From Escherichia coli (GTDB taxonomy: Bacteria > Pseudomonadota > Gammaproteobacteria > Enterobacterales > Enterobacteriaceae), in NCBI RefSeq assembly GCF_003334315.1, contig NZ_QOWR01000025.1: a stretch of DNA of 64,000 nt; one strand, given 5' to 3'. Positions 53,477 to 56,002 of the stretch are shown one piece after another. Under the pieces are notes generated by a model. That model ran no database searches. It saw only the letters and a list, made by a program, of their open reading frames with translations, and was not told the DNA's origin. Position 1 is the stretch's first letter. Every line of letters starts with the position of its first letter. The position numbers and the translations under genes were made by a program.

Positions 53477-56002
53477 TTAATTACTACCAAACATATCTTT
53501 AATCCAACCGGCTACACCGTCGCTGTCTTTCTGCTCTTGCTGAGCAGGTTGCTGTTGCTGCGGCTGAGAAGACTGATCAAACGGATTGCCTGACGGTTGC
53601 TGCTGCATCTCACTCTGCTGGCACAGCGATTGCGGATCGCTGGTCCAGACCGGCAAGACACGCATGCCACCGCTGCAAACAAAGTTGCCGTCGTAGTCCA
53701 CGCCCATATCTGCAATATCTTCTGGCGGAACAAGATTCAGCGGTGTTGGCGTCTGGTTAGCCAGATAACGCTGATAAATCGACATTGCCCCGCTGGCTCC
53801 ATACAGTTTGGTCGGCTGGTTGTTATCACGGCCTACCCAGGTGATGGTCACCGTGCTGCCGTCAATGCCCGCAAACCAGGTATCTACGTTATTGTTGGTA
53901 GTCCCTGTTTTCCCTGCCAGATGCAGGTTCGGGTATTTCGCCCCAAGCTGACGACCCGTACCGCGTTGTACAACCTGCTGCATGGTCCATAGTGTCAGAT
54001 ACGCCGCCTGCGCCGGAACAGCGCGTTCCGCCTGCGGGAAGCTCTGATACAGCACTTTGCCATCTTCCGCGATTACCGAACGCAGTGCAGAAAGCGGTGC
54101 ACGGTTACCACCGCTGGCGATGGTCTGGAATGCCTGCGCCACTTCGATTGGCGTTAAGTTCAACGCCCCCAGCAGCATCGCCGGAACCGGATGCAACTGA
54201 TCTTTCGGTACGCCCAGTTTGATCCAGGTCTCCGTAACCGCAGGCAGCCCCAGCGCCATCCCCAGATTTACCGTCGGCACGTTCATCGAACGGGTCAACG
54301 CATCCACCAGCATCACTCTGCCACTTTCGCTATAACGACGATCATCGTTCTGCGGTGACCAGACCTGGCCATTCGGCTGACGCAGCGCAATTGGCGCATC
54401 CGCAATCCACGTATTCAGACGATAGATTTTCGGCTGGCTTAAGGCCGTCAGATAAGTCGCTGGTTTTGCAAGGGAACCAATCGAACGACGCGCCTGCATC
54501 GCACGGTTGTAGCCCGCAAACTGCGGCTCAGAACCTCCGACCATCGCACGAACTTCACCACTAAAGCGGTCGACGACCACAATCGCAGTTTCAAGATCGC
54601 TCAACTTACGCTGTTTCTTCAGTGCAGGAATGCCTTCCACGGCGGCTTTTTCTGCCGCGTCCTGGGCCACCGAGTCAAAGGTAGTGAAGATCTTCACGCC
54701 GGAGAGATCTTTTACCTTATCGCCTAATTTCGCTTGCAGCTCCTGACGCACCAATTGCATAAAGGCTGGCTGTGGAGAGATTACCCCACCGCGCGGCTGA
54801 ACCCCCAGCGGACGCGCACTCAACATGTCATAGAGTTCTTGATCAATAATCTGTTGCTGTTGCAGCAGACGCAGCACCAGATTACGTCGCTCCAGCGCCA
54901 GTTTCGGGTTACGCCACGGGTTGTAGATGGACGCTCCTTTCACCATACCGACTAACAGTGCCTGCTGATCGAGGCTTAGCTCTTCTACCGGGCGACCAAA
55001 GTAATACAAGCTCGCCAGCGGGAAGCCACGGATTTCGTTGTCGCCGCTCTGACCGAGATACACCTCGTTCATATACAGCTCAAGAATACGGTCTTTGCTG
55101 TAACGCGCGTCCATGATCAGCGCCATGTAAGCTTCGTTCGCTTTACGCCAGTAAGAACGCTCGCTGGAGAGGAACAGGTTTTTCACCAGCTGTTGCGTCA
55201 GCGTACTCGCACCCTGTACCGTGCGTCCGGCGGTCAGGTTTGCCAGCACCGCACGTCCGATTGAGTAGAGACTGATTCCATCATGCTCGTAAAAATGACG
55301 GTCTTCTGTCGCCAGCAAAGTATCCACCAGCAAATCCGGGAAACCACTGCGCGGCACAAACAGACGCTGCTCACCGTTTGGCGAAGAGATCATGGTGATC
55401 AGACGCGGATCAAGACGGAAGAAACCGAACTGACGGTTGTTCTCCATATTGACGATCGTCGCCAGATGATCGCCATCAAAGGTCAGACGCGCGCGCACCT
55501 GTCCTTCTTTACTGTCCGGGAAATCAAACGGACGGCGAATCATCTCAATGCTGTTGGCCTGCACGGTAAATTCGCCAGGACGGGTCATTTTCGACACCTG
55601 ACGATACTGGGTCGCCTCCAGCAGCTTCACCATCTCGTTCTTGCTGATGGTCATGTCTGGCTCAAGATTGACCATTCGGCCATAAACTGCCGCAGGCAGT
55701 TGCCAGACCTTGCCATCAATACGGCTACGAATTTTTTGATCGAGATAAACGCCGTAAATGGCGATCAGCACGGCAAAAACGATAGCCAGTTTTAGCAGTA
55801 GCCATAGCCAGCCGCGTTTGCCACGAGGCTTACGCCCTTTGCCTTTGCCCTTACCTTTGCGCGGCATCGGTTCTTCATCCTCATAGTCATCATAATCGTC
55901 GTAATCATCGTCATCTTCGTAACGACGACGGCTTACCTTTTGTTTGACCGGACGCGTCGGTTTCCCTTTGCGTCCAATTGGCTCGCGGTCATTCCCGGTC
56001 AT
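53477..56002 (-). CDS. mrcB: Penicillin-binding protein 1B (bifunctional glycosyltransferase/transpeptidase)
   Basis: ORF-track 53477..56017 begins at a TTG; ATG at 56000..56002 preceded by GGAG; acidic [15 protein letters not shown] and basic [16 protein letters not shown] tracts, TM anchor, SxxK-type transpeptidase region. Confidence 0.95.

Follow-up and report, generated by a model that had tools for sequence, protein, structure and literature searches.

Two in-frame starts in mrcB and the charged cytoplasmic tail of Escherichia coli PBP1B

We analysed a stretch of Escherichia coli DNA of 64,000 nucleotides (contig NZ_QOWR01000025.1 of assembly GCF_003334315.1; the whole stretch is called the window below). 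The gene at 53477-56002 on its minus strand is mrcB (ponB), and the best explanation for the structure of its 5′ region, which we hold to be almost certainly right, is that one mrcB mRNA carries two in-frame starts from which the alpha and gamma forms of PBP1B are made. Initiation at the ATG at 56002 would give alpha-PBP1B, with 45 extra cytoplasmic residues made up of a conserved N-terminal peptide, a basic stretch and an acidic tract of D, E and Y. Initiation at the internal ATG of Met46 (55867) would give gamma-PBP1B, which would begin directly with a K/R/G-rich juxtamembrane tract in front of the membrane helix. Internal initiation would be driven by a GAGGA Shine-Dalgarno sequence made of Glu/Asp codons near the end of the acidic tract, on a part of the mRNA that is unusually purine-rich and weakly structured by prediction, and the short imperfect repeats in both charged tracts sometimes gain or lose one unit in frame. 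The sequence features, conservation and allele frequencies given here come from our own analysis; the use of both starts and the difference in localisation are taken from published papers.

All tests that we ran identified the product of 53477-56002 as PBP1B, a class A PBP. The coding sequence of the full-length alpha form runs on the minus strand from an ATG at 56002-56000 to a stop codon at 53479-53477 and encodes 841 amino acids. This product scored 1731.6 bits against NCBIfam NF007061 (cut-off 1120) over residues 1-840, and 1247.6 bits against TIGR02071 (cut-off 717.75); it contains, in this order, the Pfam domains PBP1_TM (residues 1-79), UB2H (113-197), Transgly (209-379) and Transpeptidase (473-714), and solved PBP1B chains match its residues 53-804. 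The gene occupies the E. coli-type chromosomal position between hrpB (56198-58672, upstream) and fhuA, with the fhu genes downstream, in a 19-kb region that is 99.9% identical to E. coli chromosomes on which mrcB, hrpB, fhuA and fhuB are annotated. RefSeq labels the matching locus mrcB (5425 E. coli genomes). The original prediction, made from the sequence alone, had named 55800-56002 as the N-terminus of mrcB/PBP1B and had given no strand; the name was right, and the segment corresponds to codons 1-67 on the minus strand. A TTG at 56017 was rejected as the start of mrcB, as it is merely where the open reading frame mechanically begins, and RefSeq coding sequences begin at the homologous ATG. 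Plus-strand open reading frames across the 5′ region were also mechanical and without support. A scan of 55700-56300 for promoters and terminators gave no hits, and it equally missed the upstream mrcB promoter, which must exist, so that its result carries no weight for or against an internal promoter.

The hrpB-mrcB intergenic region contains, at 56083-56199, a palindromic G/C-rich repeat of about 110 bp with arms GGGAGAGGG and GGGTGAGGG. It is present in the window and in BL21, where the spacer between the two genes is 195 bp; other strains have about 14 unrelated bases and a spacer of 93 bp. Among 5426 genomes, 3482 have the repeat with at least 80% query coverage, in 1-5 places each. It is a candidate boxC-type intergenic repeat of E. 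coli, judging by resemblance. Rfam matches of the palindrome to microRNA hairpins were below threshold and were discarded as chance hits to a long hairpin.

The annotated (alpha) start is preceded by the Shine-Dalgarno sequence GGAG (56013-56010), separated by a 7-nt spacer from the ATG at 56002-56000; this and all other elements of the tail lie on the minus strand. Codons 1-14 (55961-56002) encode the N-terminal peptide found only in the alpha form, which is conserved across species. The acidic tract follows at residues 29-44 (55871-55918), with 13 D/E and 3 Y in 16 residues, and contains an imperfect 9-nt (DDY) repeat and GATGAT. The basic juxtamembrane tract spans residues 46-65 (55808-55867), with 10 K/R, 6 G and 2 P in 20 residues, and contains an imperfect 6-nt (KG) repeat and GGCAAAGGCAAAGG. 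After it comes the transmembrane helix, a hydrophobic stretch at about residues 64-87 (55742-55813; Pfam PBP1_TM covers residues 1-79). Adjacent acidic and basic low-complexity tracts had been noticed in the original prediction, and both peptides quoted there were found exactly in the minus-strand translation. The PBP1B structures solved to date start at residues 53-58, and the tail is structurally unseen. We infer a double role for the acidic tract, as a disordered spacer and as the carrier of the gamma ribosome-binding site; the basic tract would be a positive-inside anchor common to the alpha and gamma forms.

Codon 2 of mrcB in the window (55997-55999, minus strand) is ACC (Thr), and it is GCC (Ala) in 5425 of 5425 complete E. 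coli genomes. The best match was 99.8% identical, with one mismatch in 401 nt, and the exact 841-residue protein with A2T is on record for E. coli in 7 contigs. This rare substitution lies in the alpha-only peptide, which is reported to mediate FtsA-dependent recruitment to midcell (PMC13423804); a cited study reports that the first six residues of PBP1B, residue 2 included, are necessary for the alpha-specific function. Apart from A2T, the mrcB N-terminus of the window contains nothing unusual.

The internal ATG of Met46 lies at 55867-55865. A search upstream of it for a Shine-Dalgarno sequence, which the original prediction had suggested as a check, found GAGGA at 55878-55882, formed by codons Glu41-Asp42 of the acidic tract, with a spacer of 10 nt; this spacer exceeds the usual optimum. 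The predicted duplex energy with the 3′ end of 16S rRNA was -6.1 kcal/mol for Met46 versus -6.6 kcal/mol for the annotated start, and the Shine-Dalgarno of Met46 ranked 3rd among the 48 ATGs of mrcB in any frame. Purine content along mrcB peaked around the internal start (0.70-0.73 in 60-nt segments starting at nt 106-127). The 61-nt segment centred on Met46 had a predicted folding energy of -8.0 kcal/mol, the average for mrcB being -15.7 (sd 3.9); in order of increasing stability it ranks 16th among 822 such segments. The surroundings of Met46 thus fit, as judged from sequence, the context expected of a working initiation site. The internal in-frame start for a shorter isoform that had been predicted coincides with the published gamma start (PMC13423804; bioRxiv 10.1101/520783; PMC11005335), and its product in the window would be 796 amino acids long.

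The alpha and gamma isoforms have been known since 1984-85. PMC13423804, published in 2026, describes the two isoforms of E. coli PBP1B with reference to Kato 1984, Broome-Smith 1985 and Chalut 2001, and places the beginning of gamma translation 46 codons downstream of alpha; it used M46L for alpha-only constructs and reported midcell enrichment for alpha only, via a predicted contact with FtsA (PMC13423804). Ribo-RET (with retapamulin) detected the internal initiation site of mrcB in E. coli K and B strains, and that study groups mrcB as one of three genes with previously characterised internal starts (10.1101/520783). Internal initiation in mrcB was also detected by Ribo-RET in S. Typhimurium, where the authors describe a disordered extension in which a basic stretch precedes an acidic one (PMC11005335). 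Because the first 210 nt of mrcB in the window are the BL21 sequence apart from codon 2, these published results should carry over to the window, whose allele is set apart from every strain tested by A2T in the part unique to alpha. The internal start and the gamma isoform were thus already known, and the finding is correct but ordinary.

Compared with K-12, the window has the same gene, the same two start codons and an identical tail from residue 3 on; it differs by A2T and by a C-terminal Q/P tract that is 3 residues shorter (841 versus 844 amino acids). The Shine-Dalgarno and ATG context is the same in BL21. The long and short MrcB proteoforms of Salmonella Typhimurium resemble those of the window in having an internal in-frame start before the membrane anchor and a disordered extension with a basic and then an acidic stretch, but the Salmonella extension is 42 residues long, with (KG)3 and a shorter acidic tract. 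The E. coli genes infB (IF2 forms) and clpB (two ClpB forms), which were grouped together with mrcB in the Ribo-RET study, likewise have one mRNA with two in-frame starts and an N-terminally shorter protein. Their proteins, however, are unrelated to PBP1B; in mrcB, by contrast, the internal Shine-Dalgarno lies inside an acidic tract of low complexity, and only a cytoplasmic tail distinguishes the two forms. The window also contains sfsA (59246-59950, plus strand), named in the same study for an experimentally confirmed internal start (10.1101/520783).

The Q/P-rich tract at the C-terminal end of mrcB (53537-53566, minus strand) varies in length as well, and accounts for most length differences among mrcB alleles. 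The window and BL21 share the same 10-residue form (841 amino acids), most E. coli have QPQQQPQQQPAQQ (844 amino acids), and a Shigella flexneri entry has QPQQQPAQQ (840 amino acids).

We compared the tail across Enterobacterales, taking one genome per species and scanning the DNA with a pattern for the conserved post-membrane motif, which gave 120 loci. The tail region was reached in 116 of these, and the position homologous to Met46 could be assigned in 110, by a rule with hand-curated fixes. A search for homologous proteins was given up as a species sample, as it returned mainly gene fragments, and the DNA pattern scan replaced it; a plain regular expression for the Met46-homologous residue picked later Val residues in many species and was also replaced. 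In about 110 species the tail has the same order: N-terminal peptide, basic stretch, acidic D/E/Y tract, start-like codon, K/R/G tract and membrane helix. Because it recurs in so many species, this architecture is conserved and cannot be put down to chance. Lengths vary across the loci: 33-70 residues for the alpha-only extension (median 47), 5-40 for the acidic span and 15-31 for the gamma tail.

The codon at the Met46 position was ATG in 75, GTG in 32, TTG in 2 and GTA in 1 of the 110 species, that is, start-like in 109 of the 110; the species are not phylogenetically independent. Six further species lacked a start-like codon there; one of these has a frameshifted gene, and another, an endosymbiont, has a reduced gene whose start is at the short-form position. 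Where the residue is Val, it is encoded by GTG in 32 of 33 species, versus 11/33 and 5/33 at two other invariant Val columns, GTG making up 52.5% of all Val codons in the portions of mrcB examined. Since a single Met-to-Val mutation must give GTG, this count would speak for a start codon only through the persistence of GTG in old clades.

Acidic tracts consist of GAN codons, among which GAGG can arise by chance, and the spacer in the window is above the optimum; GAGGA before Met46 might thus be a by-product of Glu/Asp codons with no role in ribosome binding. We consider this highly improbable, given what is seen across species. A Shine-Dalgarno of -5.8 kcal/mol or better was found at the site in 96% of species, but in only 3-17% when segments 9-51 nt upstream, within the same acidic tract, were scored. 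Of about 140 occurrences of GAGG, 110 have a spacer of 5, 8 or 11 nt. Where codon -4 or -5 encodes Glu, it is GAG in 76-87% of cases, whereas further Glu codons upstream are GAG in mostly 18-40%, and in the window the one GAG among the four Glu codons of the tract sits precisely at the Shine-Dalgarno. The start codon and its ribosome-binding site thus appear to be conserved beyond the needs of the protein sequence.

Species with GTG or TTG at the internal start had a stronger Shine-Dalgarno (median -9.35 kcal/mol) than those with ATG (-6.1 kcal/mol; Mann-Whitney p = 5e-8), a comparison that is phylogenetically confounded, with Erwiniaceae dominating. The weaker start codon is paired with GAGGAGG (-9 to -13.7 kcal/mol) in Erwiniaceae, some Serratia, Tatumella and Biostraticola, which suggests a link between a GTG/TTG start and a stronger Shine-Dalgarno. 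We lean slightly towards the view that the alpha/gamma balance itself is under selection across Enterobacterales, and that the nucleotide sequence bears the trace of this. The codons at the end of the acidic tract would then be constrained to spell a Shine-Dalgarno, and the internal start would have switched repeatedly among ATG, GTG and TTG without ever being lost. In the PBP1B isoform literature examined, we found no earlier account of a nucleotide-level conservation analysis of the mrcB internal start. The order-wide conservation is a tidy confirmation and no surprise.

The original prediction had also pointed to the repeat tracts as potential slippage sites for length variation between strains, and had suggested comparing tract lengths among alleles. 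Tandem Repeats Finder reported a period of 6 with 4.2 copies at 55836-55860 (78% matches) and a period of 9 with 4.0 copies at 55887-55922 (77% matches). Perfect tandem pieces are limited to GATGAT (55909-55904) and GGCAAAGGCAAAGG (55849-55836), each a 2-unit core. We searched 5425 complete E. coli genomes with allele queries of at most 99 nt, so that the identity band of at least 99% means an exact match. The acidic tract query (81 nt) was identical in 5122 and the basic tract query (81 nt) in 4768 of the 5425 genomes. An allele in which GATGAT has lost one GAT (DDDD to DDD) was found exactly in 178 genomes, and a divergent allele with DDD and (KG)3 in 11 more, giving DDD in at least 189 of 5425 genomes (about 3.5%). 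The loss of the 6-bp unit GGCAAA from GGCAAAGGCAAAGG, which turns (KG)4 into (KG)3, was seen in 132 exact and 11 near-exact cases; together these 143 of 5425 (2.6%) equal the 90-95% identity band of the basic tract query. From the 98-nt query with D4 and (KG)3 only the full-length exact matches listed were used, and the counts come from the other queries, because its local alignments to (KG)4 genomes stopped short of the gap and made the identity bands unusable. The KG counts fit two length classes only. In each tract about 94-97% of genomes carry the major length, and there is one minor in-frame class.

Tract lengths are thus not invariant, and the slippage claim stands in so far as both tracts have in-frame variants of one unit; with repeats this short and imperfect, the word 'hypervariable' would be unwarranted. 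Two mrcB backgrounds carry the (KG)3 form; downstream of the tracts they differ from one another at 101 sites, and each is nearer to a (KG)4 allele: MS10860, with (KG)3, differs from Z0117EC0036, with (KG)4, at 21 sites, and LR14, with (KG)3, from AF40, with (KG)4, at 59. All four combinations of D and KG lengths are present, within 60 nt of each other. This calls for two or more independent KG events, or else for recombination on a very local scale. Outside these, (KG)3 is found in Salmonella, Citrobacter, Enterobacter and two divergent Escherichia genomes, and E. albertii has (KG)4.

These same observations could be taken to mean that the tracts are contingency loci, in which frequent changes of length switch or tune PBP1B between strains, a reading to which we give very little credence. 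A contingency locus of simple sequence has a long, near-perfect repeat and many length classes, frameshifting ones included. The mrcB repeats have 2-4 units at 77-78% identity; the great majority of genomes are identical at each query, each tract has a single minor in-frame class, and no frameshifting variants were seen. Many of the 132 genomes with D4 and (KG)3, moreover, come from related isolates of extraintestinal origin, which suggests that the allele is inherited clonally. The mrcB tracts are poor substrates for slippage, their in-frame variants are rare and stable, and they form no switching locus.

Among the variants sampled in E. coli, no single-nucleotide change hit GAGGA or the Met46 ATG. 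A widespread E. coli protein allele (P0108; 932 contigs) carries E44G (EDEGPMPRK) next to the internal start. If this change is GAA to GGA, it would place AAGGA 3-4 nt from the internal ATG and might change gamma initiation.

In a few lineages the gene encodes only a gamma-length product, with no alpha extension upstream: two Budvicia (L025 and L066), an uncultured enterobacterium (L098) and a Sodalis endosymbiont (L109). A Mixta sp. (L078) has an in-frame TAG in the acidic tract, directly before AGGAGG-N7-GTG, which might be a sequencing error; going by its sequence, the functional enzyme of this species could be the short form only. The gamma-only lineages and the Mixta stop codon show, therefore, that the internal start can act as the sole start. 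In Kluyvera genomosp. 3 strain YDC799 (L095) the mrcB tail has a frameshift inside the basic tract, and the N-terminal peptide and acidic tract are out of frame with the membrane helix; either the gene is a pseudogene or the assembly is wrong in a stretch that resembles a repeat.

A third (beta) form of PBP1B is attributed to proteolysis, and the tail, being disordered and missing from the solved structures (first residue 53-58), would be open to attack by proteases. That the short form arises in this way, by trimming of the full-length protein with Met46 incidental, is nevertheless scarcely credible in view of the Ribo-RET peaks that mark the internal start in Salmonella and two strains of E. 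coli (10.1101/520783; PMC11005335), the reported loss of the short form by M46L, with which alpha alone was obtained (PMC13423804), the start-like codon in 109 of 110 species with its position-specific Shine-Dalgarno and with GTG kept at the third position of Val, and the several lineages that begin the gene at the gamma position.

Two in-frame starts on one mrcB mRNA remain the reading that we prefer, and nothing in the window alters the established picture of the PBP1B isoforms. What is added is modest: the conservation at the nucleotide level, across the order, of the internal start and its ribosome-binding site; natural one-unit variants of the tracts in a few percent of E. coli; and a few lineages with the short form only. 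Such alleles are ready natural variants for testing the charged tracts and the isoform ratio. The internal start sets the share of the enzyme that serves division versus general wall repair.
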